Assembly: GCA_037147375.1 (NCBI GenBank)
Contig: JBAWVI010000060.1
Coordinates: forward strand, 1 to 6,013
Reading direction: 5' to 3'
DNA length: 6,013 bases
DNA from: an archaeon
Lineage (GTDB): Archaea; Iainarchaeota; Iainarchaeia; Iainarchaeales; CSSED10-239
In this document: one piece after another, positions 1-6,013 of the stretch
Layout: every line of letters starts with the position of its first letter
Numbering within the stretch: the first letter of the stretch is position 1
The notes under the pieces: generated by a model
What the model was told of the DNA's origin: nothing
What the model saw: only the letters and a program-made list of their open reading frames with translations
Database searches by the model: none
Translations under genes and position numbers: made by a program

Positions 1-742
1 CTAATGCATACGATGGTTGCTGACGAGGGATAAACTTCTTATACAATCTCATGTAATCTAATGAACTGACTCCCGCAATCTTATATGGCATCAAGGGATC
101 ACGTTCATCAAACTCTACAATGTTCAATGGGGACAATGAATTGGCATTCTTGGCACCAACGATTTTCTTCATCCTATTGTATAGATACGGAATATCGAAT
201 GAATCGCCATTCCAATGTATAACAATCGTAGGATCGATCTCTTTCCATTTATCTAGGAATTGCAATAGCATTGTAGATTCCGTATGACAAGAGATTACAC
301 TCTTACTATCATCCGAAGATGACTCCAATAATTTGGCTTCGTCTAAGACATATGCGTAGTAATGCTTTCCGGTTTCATCATATAATGCGATAGCAGTTAC
401 TTTCATAGGGGCCCGTTGACAATAACCTAAGTTAATAGCCTCTCCGCGTTCTGTCTCAATATCTAGAAACACTTTGTTTTGATACGACGCCACATCATCA
501 CTATCCCGATAGATATCAAGTAGTATTGTAAGACACTTATCTACATCCTTCTCATATAAAGTCTTATCGTCTTTGTCGTATTTCTTAGTAGGATTGGCTC
601 TCTTACCATCTAACGTAGCATACTTACCCTCCGGATGAAGTTTATAGTATGTAGGTTGGTACTGGAATTCATGCCAACCCTCGTTGTCGTCTCTTAGATG
701 ACATACTCTGTCCCTATATGAATAGTAAATGGCGTTATACAT
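1..742 (-). CDS. Family B DNA polymerase (T4/RB69 gp43-like), N-terminal and 3'-5' exonuclease domains; 5' part only, ORF runs off the left edge
   Basis: Not in the supplied track because it has no stop in the window. ATG is at 742-740. I read all 247 minus-strand codons down to position 2 and found no TAA/TAG/TGA. Translation starts MYNAIYYSYRDRVCHLRDDNEGWHEFQYQPTYYKLHPEGKYATLDGKR... It contains Exo I FLDIETE (449-469) and Exo II HWNGDSFDIPYLYNR (173-217). GVSSLDYMRLYKKFIPRQQPSYAL (about 2-73) closely parallels T4 gp43 GVSILDYLDLYKKFAFTNLPSFSL as I recall it. An AGGA lies about 9 nt upstream of the ATG. Confidence 0.9.
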   Translation of the reverse strand, partial: MYNAIYYSYRDRVCHLRDDNEGWHEFQYQPTYYKLHPEGKYATLDGKRANPTKKYDKDDKTLYEKDVDKCLTILLDIYRDSDDVASYQNKVFLDIETERGEAINLGYCQRAPMKVTAIALYDETGKHYYAYVLDEAKLLESSSDDSKSVISCHTESTMLLQFLDKWKEIDPTIVIHWNGDSFDIPYLYNRMKKIVGAKNANSLSPLNIVEFDERDPLMPYKIAGVSSLDYMRLYKKFIPRQQPSYAL

Positions 743-745
743 AAC

Positions 746-904
746 TTATTTTCCTGTGCTACCGAACCCACCGGTTCCGCGATTAGTAGATGGTAATTCT
801 GAAAGTTCTTCAAATTCGATTGGAATAACTTCTTCTAAATATATTTGACCTATTCGGTCTCCTACTTCAAAAGGAGAAGGAGTATAGCCTAAATATGGTA
901 TTAT
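746..904 (-). pseudogene. dut: dUTPase C-terminal fragment (motifs IV-V only), 5'-truncated and joined in frame to the ligase ORF
   Basis: The last ~50 residues of the 746-2218 track ORF read ...PFEVGDRIGQIYLEEVIPIEFEELSELPSTNRGTGGFGSTGK*. GDRIGQ (845-862) matches the G(D/E)RIAQ strand motif of trimeric dUTPases. RGTGGFGSTG (752-781) matches their C-terminal P-loop-like motif V. Motifs I-III (including the G-x-I-D-x-x-Y-R-G-E region) are absent upstream. G+C and codon choice (cga, cgc, ggg, acc, ggc) match the polymerase block, not the ligase block. The 5' boundary is approximate (about 890-925). Stop is TAA at 746-748. Confidence 0.8.
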
Positions 905-2119
905 ACTATTTTTAATATCATCGGGTAAGAAAGATTCAAGTTCTTTCTCATTATCTGTAATTATAAGCTCAGTTGGCCTAATGATTGGAGGAATATTGAA
1001 TTTATCCTCAACTATCTTTCTTCTTTCAAAGAAAGGAACATTTATCATTTCCTTTCCATTAAGATAAAGAACATCAAACACCTTTAGATGAAGAGGAAGC
1101 TCTTTTGCTTTTTCATCAATATCATATTTTCTTTTTCTTTGTATAGTTATTTGAAATGAATGATACTTGTTGTTATCTGGATCAAATGCAATTGATTCGC
1201 AGTCAATTATAAAATCTCCTTCTATTTTTTTAATTTCTTCAACTATATCTGGAAACATCTTTGTCATATCTTCTTCATTTCTTGAAAATATTTTTACATG
1301 ATTTCCAATCTTATGAATCTGTTGACGAAATCCATCTATTTTTGAGTCTACTGCGAACTGTTTCTTTTTATCTTCCTTATCTTTACCTAATCTCTCTATA
1401 ATTTCTGGAAAGCCGCTTGCTCTTTCACAAAGAGCAGGCTTGATTGGAATAAATGGAGTAATACTTACGCTTTCAAGATCTTTCATTCCACCCAGCTTAA
1501 TTATTTTTGCAATTAATCCAAGATCAGAAACTTGATTATACTTATTTGTAATTATTTCTTTTGCAATCTTCTGATCAACAGATGGATCAATAGACGCTAG
1601 AGCATCAACTATTGTTGAATCTGAAAAACCTAGTCTAAATGAAATTGGAAACTTAACAACATACTTTGCTTCTTTTTGGGAAACATTAAAAAGAATTGAT
1701 TCAAATAACTTAAGCTTTTTTTCAATAGTTCCTTTTCCACTAATCTCTGCAATCTTTTCAAATGTTTCATAAACATCTAAAAAGGATAGTTCTTTTGAAA
1801 ATAAAGTTTTTTGTTGCTTTGTAACAGGCGTACCTTCGATGATTAAACCAAGATCTCCAACCTTAAGAAGATCTTCTTTGATTTTATCTTCTGGTTGTCC
1901 AAGATATCTTGCAGTTAAAGAAATAATTGTTGCTTCACCAATATTTATCTCTCTTCCTTGATACTTAGGTCCAACCTTACCTTGACAGAAATAAACAAGT
2001 TTGTTAATATTTTCTTTTTCGCAAAGCACAAATAATTCATGAAGAATAGATGTCATAGTTAAGCGTGAAGAAGTATCTCTTACCTTATCAAAATATTCAC
2101 ATACTTTACTAAATTCCAT
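905..2119 (-). CDS. lig: ATP-dependent DNA ligase, archaeal/eukaryal Lig1-like (DNA-binding domain plus adenylation domain through motif IIIa); 3'-truncated before motif IV
   Basis: The likely true start is ATG at 2119-2117 (MEFSKVCEYFDKVRDTSSRLTMTSILHELF, a typical ligase N-terminus). Motif I is SKIDGFR, with the adenylated Lys at 1340-1342 and the motif at 1325-1342. Motif III is FIIDCESIAF. Motif IIIa is LKVFDVLYLNGKEMINVPFFERRK. The protein is colinear with Pyrococcus-type ligase as I recall it. ELESFLPDDIKNS parallels the segment just before EGLMxK in human LIG1. Motifs IV, V and VI and the OB-fold domain are missing. The frame instead continues into the dUTPase tail (one open frame, 746-2119). 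Confidence 0.88.
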
Positions 2120-2150
2120 ATAAATATAATATAGCAAAAGATTTAAAAAT

Positions 2151-2177
2151 AAGAAAAAGAAGAGAAAGAAAAGAAAG
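2151..2177. repeat. 27-nt uninterrupted purine (A/G) run; polypyrimidine on the coding strand
   Basis: Read directly: aagaaaaagaagagaaagaaaagaaag. It lies in the 77-nt spacer between the orphan gene stop (2197) and the probable ligase ATG (2119). It is the source of the FLFFLFFFLFL string in the track's N-terminal extension. Confidence 0.85.
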
Positions 2178-2196
2178 TAAAAATAAGAATCAAACT

Positions 2197-2889
2197 CTAG
2201 ATGATTCTTATAGTACATCCTGTACTTCTAAGAATATCTGTAAATGTATTCTCACTTTTATCTAGATTCTGGGGGTGAAGATAAACTTCTTTATTATCTC
2301 TATATTTAAGATAATCTCTAGAGTTAACAAAGTATACCATCTTTTGAACAGAAATTGAATTTAAATTAACTAATATTGATTTTCTTTGATCACTTGTTAA
2401 AAGAATAATATCCTTCCTATCTCCTTGTCCAGTATAGTCCTTAAGAGTCTTAACTAAATGGTTATAGAAAAAATATGATATAGGATAATTTGTTATAGGA
2501 GGAGATTCTGTGTAAGGTCCAGTTTCAAAATAAGTATAAATCTTATATTGTTGTTGCAATTCAATAGAACTTAGGTTAAGTGCTTTTGAAAGAATAGTAA
2601 ATTGTCCATCTTTCTTAATTGCATTATCAACAGTTTTTTGCTTTTGTTTAATTCCAAGATCAATATCTTTTTGATTTGAAAAACCAGTATGAAGAAGAGC
2701 CATGTCATCTGTTTTTTTATTAAATGATTCATTATCTTTAACCTTTGTAATCTCTTCCTTTAAGAGATTCATTAAGTCATCTTTTTCAAACTTATCTTCA
2801 GTTAGTTGTTTAAGCTTTGAGTTTGCTTTTGTTATTGATTTAGGGGTTACTTCTTTTTTGCTTTCTGTATGTATTTTTGTTTTTACCAT
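2197..2889 (-). CDS. Hypothetical protein, 230 aa: Lys/Glu-rich N-terminal ~100 aa plus a C-terminal aromatic-rich domain; no family recognised
   Basis: A 693-nt open frame in ~28% G+C DNA is unlikely by chance, because stop codons are AT-rich. It is co-directional with its neighbours. A weak SD-like GAGATGAT (2895-2902) lies 5 nt before the ATG at 2889-2887. I recognise no catalytic motif. A PIP-box-like string QYKIYTYF is at 2527-2550. Confidence 0.65.
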   Translation of the reverse strand: MVKTKIHTESKKEVTPKSITKANSKLKQLTEDKFEKDDLMNLLKEEITKVKDNESFNKKTDDMALLHTGFSNQKDIDLGIKQKQKTVDNAIKKDGQFTILSKALNLSSIELQQQYKIYTYFETGPYTESPPITNYPISYFFYNHLVKTLKDYTGQGDRKDIILLTSDQRKSILVNLNSISVQKMVYFVNSRDYLKYRDNKEVYLHPQNLDKSENTFTDILRSTGCTIRII

Positions 2890-2967
2890 AGATAATCATC
2901 TCTAATATATTTTTTAATTAAAATAAAATAGTAATAAATAATATTATTAGATGAATTAATAAAGATA

Positions 2968-2984
2968 TTGGTTTAGTAAACCAA
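2968..2984. repeat. Perfect 17-bp palindrome TTGGTTTA-G-TAAACCAA
   Basis: Read directly: 2968-2975 ttggttta, centre g at 2976, 2977-2984 taaaccaa (the exact reverse complement). It lies 13 nt downstream of the pyrF stop, in the longest intergenic spacer of the window (2890-2996). Confidence 0.9.
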
Positions 2985-2996
2985 ACTATAGATTAA

Positions 2997-3761
2997 TTAT
3001 AAATTTTTTGCTATATCTTGTAATATTTCATAACCAGCTTTTAGTCTCTCCTCTCTAGTTTTTTGATCAGTTATTGCTCTTCCAATAACTAAAATACTTG
3101 AACCATCTATGATTGCATTTCCTGGAGTAAACACTCTTTTCTGATCAGCACCAGCAGGAGTATTAACACCCTTAATTCCAGGAGTTACATACATGAAATT
3201 AGTAGGTAATTTATCTTTGATTGCATAAAGATCAGCTGCAGAGCAAACAATTCCATCAAGTCCTGCTTCTTGTACAAGTTTTGCAAGCCTTAATACTTGT
3301 TCAGGAACCTCTCCAGATATATTTAATTGATTATTCATAATATTCTTATCAATACTTGTAAGAATTGTTACTCCAATAATCTTTGGCATATATCCTCCAT
3401 ATTTTTCAGAACCTTTCTTTGCACCCTCAACTGCTGCTTTAAGCATTTCAAGTCCACCAGACGCATGAACATTAAACATATAAACACCAAGCTTTGTTGC
3501 AGCTTGTGCAGCACCTTTAACTGTATTTGGGATATCATGATACTTAAGATCTAAGAATACATTTGCACCATATCCTTGAACAACCTTTACAACCTCAGGA
3601 CCAAACCTAGTAAATGTTTCTTTTCCTATCTTAAATAAACCCACAACAGGACTTAATTCTTCAACTCTTGATTTTACGTCTTCAATAGTTTCAAGTTCAT
3701 CAAGCGGTAAACAAACTTTTGTTCTTGCTAATTTTTCTTTTTCATTTAAACTAAACTCCAT
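2997..3761 (-). CDS. pyrF: Orotidine 5'-phosphate decarboxylase
   Basis: 254 aa. Signature FLDLKYHDIPNTV (D-x-K-x-x-D-I-P-N-T catalytic motif, D71/K73/D76), with LPLD near the N-terminus and FKIG. It is colinear with Bacillus-type PyrF, including VHASGG and the C-terminal VIGRAIT phosphate-binding loop. SD AAGGGGG is 8 nt upstream. Confidence 0.95.
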   Translation of the reverse strand: MEFSLNEKEKLARTKVCLPLDELETIEDVKSRVEELSPVVGLFKIGKETFTRFGPEVVKVVQGYGANVFLDLKYHDIPNTVKGAAQAATKLGVYMFNVHASGGLEMLKAAVEGAKKGSEKYGGYMPKIIGVTILTSIDKNIMNNQLNISGEVPEQVLRLAKLVQEAGLDGIVCSAADLYAIKDKLPTNFMYVTPGIKGVNTPAGADQKRVFTPGNAIIDGSSILVIGRAITDQKTREERLKAGYEILQDIAKNL

Positions 3762-3769
3762 AATTTATG

Positions 3770-3776
3770 CCCCCTT
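3770..3776 (-). promoter_or_regulatory. Shine-Dalgarno site for pyrF (AAGGGGG)
   Basis: The minus strand reads aatAAGGGGGcataaattATG, with an 8-nt spacer, in the 17-nt gap after the pyrC stop. Confidence 0.65.
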
Positions 3777-3778
3777 AT

Positions 3779-4723
3779 TTATATTTTAAATGTTTTAATT
3801 ATGTTATCATACGTTAACTTATCTATTTCATTTGTTGATAAACCTAAGGTAGGTAAATATTCTTCAACAAAAATTTTGTAAAGATATAAAGATGGAAATC
3901 CAGACATATATGGTGAAAAAAGTTTTTCTCCAATTGCGTGTGATGCATGATCAGTTTCTATCCAATCAATCTTTCCTTTTGCAAGATCATCTCTTAAAGA
4001 ATTAACTTCCTCTTTCTTTCTTAATGGTGGATTCATCTTATACAACAATCCATCTTCTCTAGCAAGCATACTTTCATCCCAAAGAACATGATGTGGAGTT
4101 ACTGCACAAGTTATTTTTAGATCTTTTTCAGAATTTATTAGATTAACTGATTCTGAGCAAGATACGTGACAAATATGTAACGTACCTTTAAAGTTTGCTT
4201 CTTTTGCAAAACTAATTTGATCTTTTATTGATTGTACTTCAGAAATTGTTGGTCTTGAGTATGCATGTGTGATTGGAATATCTGGATTAAACATATTATT
4301 ATCAATAAATGACTCCTTTTCACAATGCAATGCAATAACTCCTTTATAATTATTTTCAGCAAGTGTTTTGTAAACTAATCTTTGTTTATCTTCAGAAATG
4401 ATTGCTAAGTCTCCAACTGATTTGCCAGCAAAAAACTTTATTCCAATAACTTCATTATATTTTTCTGTGATTCTCACAGCTTCTTGAAGTTGTTCTTGAT
4501 TAGAAGTTGCTCCAATATATAGATGATATCTACCTCTTACATCTTGTGGAACAAGATTCAACCTTTCAATAACATCCTTCTCGTTTAGGATAGGAGGAGA
4601 TGTGTTTGGCATATCAAATATCTTATCAACTCCTTGTTCGTCACAAACCTTAAAGACATGTTTAATAGTATCTTTATAGTTCTGATTTCCATCCCTACAA
4701 TGAACATGTGGATCTATTCTCAT
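3779..4723 (-). CDS. pyrC: Dihydroorotase, short amidohydrolase-core form (314 aa)
   Basis: Metal-ligand pattern of the DHOase/amidohydrolase fold: DPHVHCRD (H6, H8), GIKFFAGK (candidate carboxylated Lys96), ALHCE (H133), HICHVS (H183/H186), ETDHASH (D258). Also present are DMPNTSPP and KMNPPLRKKEE, both conserved DHOase strings. SD AAGAGGTG is 7 nt upstream. Confidence 0.9.
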   Translation of the reverse strand: MRIDPHVHCRDGNQNYKDTIKHVFKVCDEQGVDKIFDMPNTSPPILNEKDVIERLNLVPQDVRGRYHLYIGATSNQEQLQEAVRITEKYNEVIGIKFFAGKSVGDLAIISEDKQRLVYKTLAENNYKGVIALHCEKESFIDNNMFNPDIPITHAYSRPTISEVQSIKDQISFAKEANFKGTLHICHVSCSESVNLINSEKDLKITCAVTPHHVLWDESMLAREDGLLYKMNPPLRKKEEVNSLRDDLAKGKIDWIETDHASHAIGEKLFSPYMSGFPSLYLYKIFVEEYLPTLGLSTNEIDKLTYDNIIKTFKI

Positions 4724-4730
4724 AATATTT

Positions 4731-4738
4731 CACCTCTT
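4731..4738 (-). promoter_or_regulatory. Shine-Dalgarno site for pyrC (AAGAGGTG)
   Basis: The minus strand reads aaAAGAGGTGaaatattATG, with a 7-nt spacer, in the 22-nt gap after the pyrE stop. Confidence 0.7.
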
Positions 4739-4745
4739 TTTAATC

Positions 4746-5420
4746 TTATTTTTCTATTTTTGGAAAACCATTTTTTGCACCCCAATTAAATGGATCTTTT
4801 CTCCAATCAGCAAGCAATTCTATTTGGTCAGATGTTAAATAATTAATTTCTTTTGCAGTTTCTAGAAGAACATCATATGTAAGAATTGATCTTACTTCAG
4901 TTTTTTCAGGAAGAACATCAAACTCAGTTTTTGCTTTATCAAGTCCATAACTAAATATTGATAAACAATATTCTACTTTTCCTTTTGCATCTCTCACTGC
5001 TTGAACTGCTTTTGCAGAAGACCCACCAGTTGAGATAAGATCTTCAATAACAATTACTTTTTTTCCTTCTAAGTCCTTATCAGCATCAAGACCTTCAATT
5101 TGATTTTTAAGTCCATGATCCTTTGGTTTATCTCTGATGTATATCATTGGCTTGTTTAATAAATCAGCTAAGATTGTTGCGTGAGGAATACCAGCAGTTG
5201 ATGTTCCAGCAATTACATCACACTCTATTTTTTCATTATCAATAATTTCTTTAAATCCTTTTGCAACAAGAGCTCTATACTCTGAATAGAATAATAACAT
5301 TCTATTGTCATTGTATATTGGCATTCTATAACCGGATGCCCAAGTAAATGGGTCTCCTGGTCTTAGCTTAATTGATCCTATGCTTAATGATATTTTTGCA
5401 ATTTCTTTTCCATAATTCAT
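4746..5420 (-). CDS. pyrE: Orotate phosphoribosyltransferase
   Basis: 224 aa. FTWASGYRMPIYNDNRMLL matches the Bacillus/Gram-positive-type PyrE N-terminal signature (FTWASGIKSPIYCDNR as I recall it). The PRPP-binding motif KVIVIEDLISTGGS is at 5019-5060. SD AGGAGG is 7 nt upstream. Confidence 0.95.
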   Translation of the reverse strand: MNYGKEIAKISLSIGSIKLRPGDPFTWASGYRMPIYNDNRMLLFYSEYRALVAKGFKEIIDNEKIECDVIAGTSTAGIPHATILADLLNKPMIYIRDKPKDHGLKNQIEGLDADKDLEGKKVIVIEDLISTGGSSAKAVQAVRDAKGKVEYCLSIFSYGLDKAKTEFDVLPEKTEVRSILTYDVLLETAKEINYLTSDQIELLADWRKDPFNWGAKNGFPKIEK

Positions 5421-5427
5421 ATTTATT

Positions 5428-5433
5428 CCTCCT
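5428..5433 (-). promoter_or_regulatory. Shine-Dalgarno site for pyrE (AGGAGG)
   Basis: The minus strand reads aaaAGGAGGaataaatATG, with a 7-nt spacer. The site lies immediately after the pyrD stop codon. Confidence 0.7.
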
Positions 5434-5434
5434 T

Positions 5435-6013
5435 TTATTTCACATTGAAATTGTACTCTCTATCTTGATCTGATTTTTCTTTGAGCTTACCTCTAAAATC
5501 ATCTAAACTCTTATACCCTTTCTTTTGCATTAGCTCTTTTAACTCATTTGATATTCTATTAAATGCATTTGGTCCTTCTTTTGCATATGTGGTTGCAATC
5601 TGAACCATGTCTGCTCCTGCAAGAATAAATTCAAACACATCTGTTCCAGTTCTTATTCCACCACATCCAATTATCTTAACTTTATTATTTAAAAGTTGAG
5701 AGAAACCAAACACATTTCCTAAAGCAATTGGTTTAATAAAATCTCCACCAAGTCCTCCAAGTCCTTTCTTTGGTTTAATAACTGCTTCTTCTTTTTCTGG
5801 ATCGATGACTAAGCAATTACCAACTGAATTAATTAGAACTGCAAAATCAATCTTAGTATCTATAAGAATATCTGCAATCTGCTTTTGATGGACTTGATCA
5901 AGATATGGTGGTAATTTAACAGCAATTGGTTTATCTGTTAAGTCTCTTGCTGCTTCAAGAACCTCTCTTGAATATTCGAAATAATATCCAGCTTGCGGTT
6001 TTCCAATTATGTT
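5435..6013 (-). CDS. pyrD: Dihydroorotate dehydrogenase, class 1 (1A-like), C-terminal 192 aa; ORF runs off the right edge
   Basis: The track's 92-aa call begins at an internal GTG. The same frame stays open to position 6013: NIIGKPQAGYYFEYSREVLEAARDLTDKPIAVKLPPYLDQVH...LINSVGNCLVIDPEKEEAVIKPKKGLGGLGGDFIKPIALGNVFGFSQLL...IIGCGGIRTGTDVFEFILAGADMVQIATTYAKEGP. NSxGN, GGLGG-x-x-IKP and GxGGI-x-x-G-x-D are DHOD FMN/substrate motifs. GKPQ and VKLPPY resemble class 1A (Lactococcus PyrDa / yeast URA1 type) rather than 1B or class 2. Stop is TAA at 5435-5437. Confidence 0.92.
   Translation of the reverse strand, partial: NIIGKPQAGYYFEYSREVLEAARDLTDKPIAVKLPPYLDQVHQKQIADILIDTKIDFAVLINSVGNCLVIDPEKEEAVIKPKKGLGGLGGDFIKPIALGNVFGFSQLLNNKVKIIGCGGIRTGTDVFEFILAGADMVQIATTYAKEGPNAFNRISNELKELMQKKGYKSLDDFRGKLKEKSDQDREYNFNVK

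Follow-up and report, generated by a model that had tools for sequence, protein, structure and literature searches.

A single-base junction between phage-like viral DNA and an archaeal chromosome segment in a 6,013-nt window

Gene content and the junction at 926/927

The window analysed here is positions 1-6,013 of contig JBAWVI010000060.1 (GenBank assembly GCA_037147375.1), in which DNA from an archaeal chromosome and DNA from a phage-like virus meet at positions 926/927, inside one long open reading frame (ORF). All genes are on the minus strand. The archaeal segment (927..6013, no strand) carries, in transcription order, pyrD-pyrE-pyrC-like-pyrF, a 230-aa ORF and the 5' part of a gene for an ATP-dependent DNA ligase. 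To the left of the junction are the 3' end of a viral dUTPase gene and the beginning of a gene for a T4-type family-B DNA polymerase (PolB). The initial annotation had proposed, from a step in G+C content, that two DNAs, one viral and one cellular, are abutted within an ORF with no amelioration. We find support for this proposal in comparisons with other contigs and not in the G+C step itself.

The archaeal segment is 100.000% identical (5087 nt, 0 mismatches) to the terminal 5087 nt, positions 17823-22909, of an uncultured archaeon metagenome contig (L001; ENA ERZ4223250 NODE_2176_length_22909_cov_5.73). Position 927 is the last base that matches and 926 is the first mismatch, which places the junction at 926..927 (no strand). 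A base-by-base comparison leftwards of 926 gives an ungapped identity to L001 of 27.6%, the random level. The junction splits a codon (TT-A, Leu) where the archaeal contig has TTT (Phe), with the reading frame retained. The last base of the NODE_2176 record corresponds to window position 6013, so either the source of the window ends there too or the window was built from that contig. The coverage of NODE_2176 is low (5.7x).

The ligase is cut at residue 397 of 589. The window retains its 5' 397 codons (928..2119, minus strand), with the Pfam domains A_N (1-174/174) and A_M (1-177/204) and no A_C. The cut lies inside the adenylation domain, and the rest of this domain and the OB-fold domain are absent from the window. 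TIGR00574 is covered over 2-348/527, whereas the intact 589-aa ligase of L001 covers 2-527/527, and residue 398 is the first amino acid at which the two proteins differ. A functional ATP-dependent DNA ligase of the archaeal/eukaryotic Lig1 type is thus not encoded, given the incomplete adenylation domain and the missing OB-fold. L001 is an archaeal chromosome, in which the ligase gene, with all three Pfam domains, is followed by genes for a KaiC-like ATPase, rpoH, a split rpoB and rpoA.

An independent metagenome-assembled genome (MAG; L003, GTDB genome 'uncultured archaeon isolate SRP178699_co1_70') encodes a ligase with 89% identity across residues 1-585, and its gene order agrees with that of L001, also downstream. 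The identity between the L001 and L003 ligases is 0.89 before the breakpoint and 0.88 after it. As this identity is uniform across the breakpoint, the intact arrangement is native and the window is rearranged. The converse, that the arrangement in the window is native and NODE_2176 is the chimera, is extremely improbable. It could appeal to the fact that only L001 continues past the junction at 100% identity, a second independent MAG contig (L002; GCA_964445425.1 contig CAYUKR010000028.1) stopping before it. However, the L001 ligase is complete, L003 has the same full-length ligase and downstream genes with equal identity on both sides, and it is the window version that truncates both genes. 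We reject this possibility because of the L003 synteny and the uniform ligase identity.

The dUTPase fragment (746..925, minus strand) consists of 59 codons and a stop (TAA at 746-748) and includes motifs 4 and 5 only. It matches Pfam dUTPase over 91-129/129, NCBIfam dut over 101-143/143 and PHROG 135 (5.7e-11), and aligns to residues ~98-144 of dUTPases in the PDB. Trimeric dUTPases have five motifs in ~140-160 aa, whereas only 59 residues and motifs 4-5 are found here. No in-frame start codon was found past the junction in this fragment, therefore the dUTPase gene was also cut, in frame and at ~2/3 of its length.

The ligase and dUTPase fragments code on one strand and in one frame, a same-strand, in-frame arrangement with a chance of ~1 in 6. 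The resulting 'ligase-dUTPase' ORF extends from 746 to 2119 or 2218 (minus strand, 457 or 490 aa). The mechanically called 490-aa version starts in a low-complexity A-rich stretch, and L001 uses the ATG at 2119 as its start. The spacer before this ATG includes an imperfect A-rich 34-nt tandem duplication (2122-2189, 71% identity). On sequence grounds the product of the chimeric ORF is predicted to be one that cannot work as a ligase or as a dUTPase, because it is without motifs IV-VI and the OB domain of the ligase and without motifs 1-3 of dUTPase.

No tRNA and no match to an Rfam family were found in the window, no direct or inverted repeat involves the junction, and no integrase is encoded among the window ORFs, in which the visible viral DNA amounts to 926 nt. 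The junction was also absent from the collections searched: a 33-mer across it is not in IMG/VR, a 26-mer is not in JGI metagenome contigs, and the chimeric ORF protein is not on record in an index of 153 billion gene positions. The 44-mer adjoining the junction on the archaeal side is not in IMG/VR, and no viral sequence sharing it was seen. No publication was found under the accessions of the sample and assembly. An exact look-up of the pyrF protein returned only two recorded contigs (L001 and L002); thus, no recorded contig contains the junction.

The viral fragment and the archaeal gene neighborhood

The PolB gene leaves the window at its left end, and its first 247 codons (2..742, minus strand) are present. 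The translation matches Pfam DNA_pol_B_exo1 (1.3e-18) and PHROG 262 (1.5e-38) and includes 'FLDIETE' and 'HWNGDSFDIPYL', which correspond to the DIE of Exo I and the NxxxFD of Exo II. We thus identify the exonuclease domain of a family-B polymerase; the window holds this N-terminal part and the polymerase domain falls outside it. The cultured relatives are T4-like and cyanophage polymerases (~30% identity), and the best match in a protein set of 5.8 billion clusters is 40% identical. The closest relative (72% amino acid identity, same start) is the 863-aa PolB of IMGVR_UViG_3300032236_001391 (L011), a 67.5-kb IMG/VR viral contig that encodes ribonucleotide reductase (RNR), two small ORFs, a 142-aa dUTPase and, after 15 nt, PolB, followed by an unassigned 238-aa ORF and GroES.

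The left part of the window has the same gene order as L011, at 70.7% nucleotide identity, and L011 has a complete dUTPase where that of the window is cut. The PolB ATG is 3 nt after the dUTPase stop, with AGGA upstream, and this spacing looks natural. The gene order points to dUTPase-then-PolB as the native layout of this virus lineage. Positions 1-926 are a coherent fragment of a phage-like virus, and the join removed about 85-100 codons from the start of its dUTPase gene. The two sides of the window, for which the initial annotation had advised separate assignment, do have separate identities: 927-6013 is archaeal, by comparison with L001 and L003, and the left piece is phage-like dUTPase-PolB.

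The exact donor of 1-926 was not recovered. There is no blastn match among 50,697 phage records, a 40-mer at the dUTPase/PolB boundary is not in IMG/VR, GTDB genomes or JGI metagenomes, and the protein search yielded at most 40% identity for PolB and 77% for the dUTPase fragment. The PolB relative at 72% identity came from IMG/VR alone. We considered whether the left part could be machine-generated or simulated sequence and judged this unlikely, because a natural viral contig matches it at 70.7% nucleotide identity and shares its gene order.

The relatives of the dUTPase fragment (60-77% protein and ~80% nucleotide identity) are on phage-like contigs of 28-30% G+C and do not align past window position 875. 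The fragment is 77% identical to the dUTPase type of L005 and L006 (P0018/P0019) and 48% identical to that of L011. Adjacency of dUTPase and PolB was absent in the dUTPase relatives L005-L008 and in the distant PolB relatives L004, L009 and L010.

In L007 (ena:ERZ27280654:k141_354204, 2393-3290) the gene for a phage dUTPase is interrupted within motif 3, giving an 83-aa ORF that ends '...NSVGVLDSKNY' and an 86-aa ORF with '...MGYRGEV...GDRIGQ...RGTGGFGSTGK', separated by ~385 nt with two small ORFs and no Rfam family at gathering threshold. The short dUTPase ORFs P0019, P0021, P0024 and P0029 start at the same motif-3 site, which suggests a recurrent insertion (an intron or mobile element) in the L007-type dUTPase lineage. 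In L008 (2830-3036; contig coverage 1.9x) a 68-aa ORF is homologous to the C-terminal third of dUTPase only, with no dUTPase 5' part upstream, and adjoins a divergently transcribed EcoP15I-like gene. The distant PolB relatives often consist of separate exonuclease and polymerase ORFs (P0001 and P0004, for example); those of L004 (4685-7214) are 330 aa and 519 aa with a 23-nt overlap.

On the archaeal side, the 230-aa ORF upstream of the ligase (2197..2889, minus strand) has no family match, and its position is conserved in L001 and L002. It is preceded in transcription order by four genes of pyrimidine biosynthesis, all on the minus strand. The gene for orotidine-5'-phosphate decarboxylase, pyrF (2997..3761), is identified by Pfam (9.9e-47) and by NCBIfam NF001273 (227 bits, cut-off 193). 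A dihydroorotase-like protein of 314 aa (3779..4723) has no Pfam match and matches NCBIfam pyrC_multi (6.4e-53) below its cut-off, covering 42-316 of the 412 profile positions with 180 bits, versus a curated cut-off of 279. The same 314-aa length in L003 indicates a compact archaeal form and not a truncation. The gene for orotate phosphoribosyltransferase, pyrE (4746..5420), was identified by Pfam and NCBIfam profile searches. The dihydroorotate dehydrogenase gene, pyrD, is represented by its 3' 192 codons (5435..6013; Pfam DHO_dh 131-291/291) and leaves the window at the right end.

L002 is 99.83% identical to the window. All 8 differences between it and the window (or L001) are transitions within 97 nt at 5334-5430, a tract that covers the 5' end of pyrE and the pyrD-pyrE spacer, and the other ~4.7 kb are identical. 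These differences mark a small tract of strain-level variation or recombination. A second archaeal discontinuity near 5755, where L002 diverges, was considered and rejected, as it reflects a run of N and thus a scaffold gap. This run (~5135-5393) is inside the pyrD of L002, which explains why the pyrD fragment called in that contig has only 92 aa and why the BLAST identity stops at window position ~5755. At its other end, the L002 contig terminates at the equivalent of window position 971, inside the ligase gene and 44 nt from the junction, a coincidence of ~2% if contig ends are uniform over the shared region. This could hint at an assembly-graph branch at that site in another sample.

Composition and codon usage

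The G+C counts that prompted the analysis were exact. A recount gives 56/140 (40%) at 751-890 and 39/140 (27.9%) at 891-1030, and the lines sampled elsewhere were also right (computed values of 35-43% within 1-420, and 27%, 27% and 30% at 1021, 2581 and 4801). A compositional shift exists in the window as a whole. A model with one change point in G+C has a log-likelihood ratio (LLR) of 13.3, with 39.3% on the left side and 30.0% on the right side, whereas 300 shuffles of 30-nt blocks gave an average LLR of 3.2 and at most 11.9. The single change point is thus significant.

The position of the step had been given as about 890, and this part of the claim does not stand. The optimum for raw G+C is at 781-793. 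For G+C at third codon positions (GC3), taken in the shared frame, the optimum is 779, with an LLR of 22.1; the value is ~20.3 at 740, the dUTPase/PolB gene boundary, and 13.7 at 926. The composition and codon-usage step (745..800, no strand) thus coincides with the boundary between dUTPase motif 5 and PolB, within the viral piece and ~130-180 nt left of the junction. Contrary to what was proposed, it does not coincide with the protein-level breakpoint. The actual junction lies 36 nt to the right of the position estimated in the initial annotation. The G+C at the junction is 31% on one side (827-926) and 30% on the other (927-1026), a contrast of ~0. The junction is silent in composition because the DNA just left of it matches the right side.

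By block, G+C is 50% at 751-800, 34% at 801-890, 22% at 891-926 and 30% at 927-1030. The first of these blocks encodes the Gly-rich dUTPase motif 5 (RGTGGFGSTGK), and the 40% of 751-890 arises because this one 50-nt block carries the value. In comparable loci, both archaeal and viral, 3-7% of positions show a difference of at least 17 G+C between neighboring 140-nt blocks; therefore, the local count alone is not exceptional. The use of a sharp step as the marker of the junction was unsound in this case, with the step inside the viral piece and the junction without contrast.

The difference in codon usage, by comparison, holds for the left part as a whole. Arg codons are CGN:AGR 7:6 on the left versus 2:51 on the right (Fisher p = 6.6e-5). 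The GC3 of PolB is 0.385, versus 0.13-0.17 for each of the archaeal genes, and the G+C of 1-745 is 38.5%. None of 685 windows of 926 nt in three related archaeal loci reaches 39.3% G+C.

These data bear on the possibility that no foreign DNA is present, with the G+C step due to ordinary variation among genes and amino acids and the ORF a natural ligase-dUTPase fusion. The frequency of comparable 140-nt contrasts in ordinary loci, and the contribution of the Gly-rich motif 5 to the signal, are consistent with this explanation. However, identity to the archaeal contig ends abruptly at 926, both the ligase and the dUTPase are incomplete, the PolB GC3, Arg codons and 39% G+C are outside the range of the archaeal loci, and no homologue with a ligase-dUTPase architecture was found. 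The comparison with L001 and that of the composition with archaeal loci refute a natural fusion, to which we assign next to no probability.

The dUTPase fragment differs from the PolB gene that follows it. Its GC3 is 9/59 = 0.153, which cannot be told apart from that of the archaeal genes and is very unlikely under PolB usage (p = 9e-5). The value is 4/48 for codons at 782-925 and 5/11 in the final 11 codons, and the change point at 779 falls on the first codon of motif 5, which encodes Arg. The fragment has two Arg codons, CGA and CGC, and thus uses the CGN type, which is frequent in PolB and accounts for 2/53 in the archaeal genes. The step seen in G+C and codon usage is a property of the viral piece, in which the GC3 of PolB is above that of the dUTPase fragment. 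The simplest reading is ordinary phage mosaicism, with a dUTPase allele of low-GC ancestry in a conserved slot upstream of a PolB gene with higher GC3.

A mosaic of three pieces would require a second join within dUTPase motif 5 (~780), linking the dUTPase of a low-GC virus to the dUTPase-PolB of another virus, either by a second mis-join at a shared k-mer or by natural homologous exchange. The GC3 change point at the motif-5 Arg codon fits such a join, as do the differences in GC3 between the upstream codons, the final codons and PolB. The identity of the fragment to the L005/L006 type (77%), versus 48% to the dUTPase that adjoins the closest PolB in L011, is also as expected. However, the change point cannot be separated from the gene boundary (LLR 22.1 at 779 vs 20.3 at 740), both Arg codons of the fragment are of the type common in PolB, L011 has dUTPase-PolB as its native order and the spacing of 3 nt between stop and ATG, with AGGA upstream, looks natural. 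Replacement of an allele in a conserved slot is in any case ordinary among phages. We consider a second join unlikely.

Origin and significance of the joined sequence

We infer that the joined sequence is an artefact and not that of a real cellular molecule, and consider it very probable that the window is a non-biological chimera, produced by metagenome mis-assembly or by in-silico concatenation. This is favored because both genes are cut mid-domain, because no tRNA, repeat, integrase or Rfam element accompanies a junction found in none of the collections searched, and because the window stops on the right exactly where a low-coverage ENA contig stops. The end of a contig from a low-GC archaeon (5087 nt) would have been placed beside 926 nt of phage-like viral DNA, with contact at 926/927, either through a mis-join in another metagenome assembly of the same population or through concatenation in silico. 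The long 'ligase-dUTPase' ORF would then be an accident of shared strand and frame.

Three points weigh against an artefact. Retention of strand and frame across the join is slightly more to be expected of something selected or purposeful. With the L002 contig ending 44 nt away, the site could be truly heterogeneous in nature. The donor of 1-926 is in no collection searched, which leaves the mechanism of the mis-join putative.

The window belongs to the familiar class of inter-genome chimeric contigs, and there is no new biological feature here. As in contigs that arise through de Bruijn graph mis-joins or through concatenation, sequences from two unrelated sources meet at one precise base. 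One of them is a perfect match to an independent contig with another continuation, both sides have a truncated gene, coverage of the source contig is low (5.7x) and the junction is absent from other datasets. Mis-joins usually occur at a shared repeat or a conserved k-mer, however, and the ligase and dUTPase genes that meet here are not homologous.

Other known systems fit less well. In the junction of an integrated provirus, viral replication genes also adjoin cellular genes on one contig, but an integrase, an att repeat and a tRNA target are all lacking here, and the join destroys the host gene instead of reconstituting it. The junction is moreover inside a viral gene (dUTPase profile 91-129/129 left) and not at a genome end or att site. 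Viruses of the type with T4-like PolB, dUTPase, RNR and GroES, such as L011, are not known to integrate. Chimeras from multiple displacement amplification (MDA) share the abrupt junction without long homology. Such chimeras mostly join inverted segments of one molecule, whereas the fragments here have one coding strand and come from two genomes, those of an archaeon and a phage-like virus. Among the four processes listed in the initial annotation (metagenome mis-join, MDA chimera in a single-cell genome, artificial concatenation and very recent illegitimate recombination), MDA is thus the least likely.

Capture of host genes by a virus, as in transduction or in the acquisition of host-derived metabolic genes, would also link pyrimidine genes to viral replication genes. 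Captured genes are normally whole and adapted to the virus, whereas this 5-kb block is base-for-base host chromosome and ends in half a ligase. A real capture would be a very recent illegitimate recombination, giving a virus or hybrid molecule with at least 5 kb of archaeal host chromosome, random breakpoints and no amelioration. The 100% identity to cellular sequence is as expected for such an event, strand and frame are kept across the join, and the position of the L002 end fits an assembly-graph branch in another sample. The dUTPase GC3 of 0.153, like that of the archaeal genes, and its relatives on contigs of 28-30% G+C also indicate that this gene circulates among low-GC hosts. None of the supports from frame, perfect identity and the L002 end is strong. 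In contrast, both genes are cut mid-domain, integrase, att site and tRNA are lacking, and the junction is in no public collection searched. The GC3 of PolB (0.385) is far from that of the archaeon (0.13-0.17), and a rare recombinant is not normally the consensus path of an assembly. PolB is of the T4 type, with lytic bacteriophages as its cultured relatives, and a real join to an archaeal chromosome is less plausible because the nearest of these are T4-like bacteriophages. We regard recent recombination as distinctly unlikely, and still less likely is a real junction in a virus with T4-type PolB, or a hybrid replicon, that carries at least 5 kb of archaeal pyrD-pyrE-pyrC-pyrF and half a ligase.

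The finding is mainly of value for quality control, and it would be wrong to treat the window as a single genome. Annotation of the 457- or 490-aa 'ligase-dUTPase' ORF as a fusion protein is to be avoided, and the apparent linkage of archaeal pyr genes to viral replication genes is unfit for virus-host assignment or for claims of auxiliary metabolic genes. As a lesson of method, a step in G+C can flag a chimera and yet be located >100 nt from the junction if the DNA beside the join happens to resemble its neighbor in composition; comparison with an independent contig located the join to the base. If the junction were real after all, it would represent an unusual virus-archaeon recombinant, with a direct physical link between virus and host and wholesale capture of a pyrimidine-biosynthesis operon.

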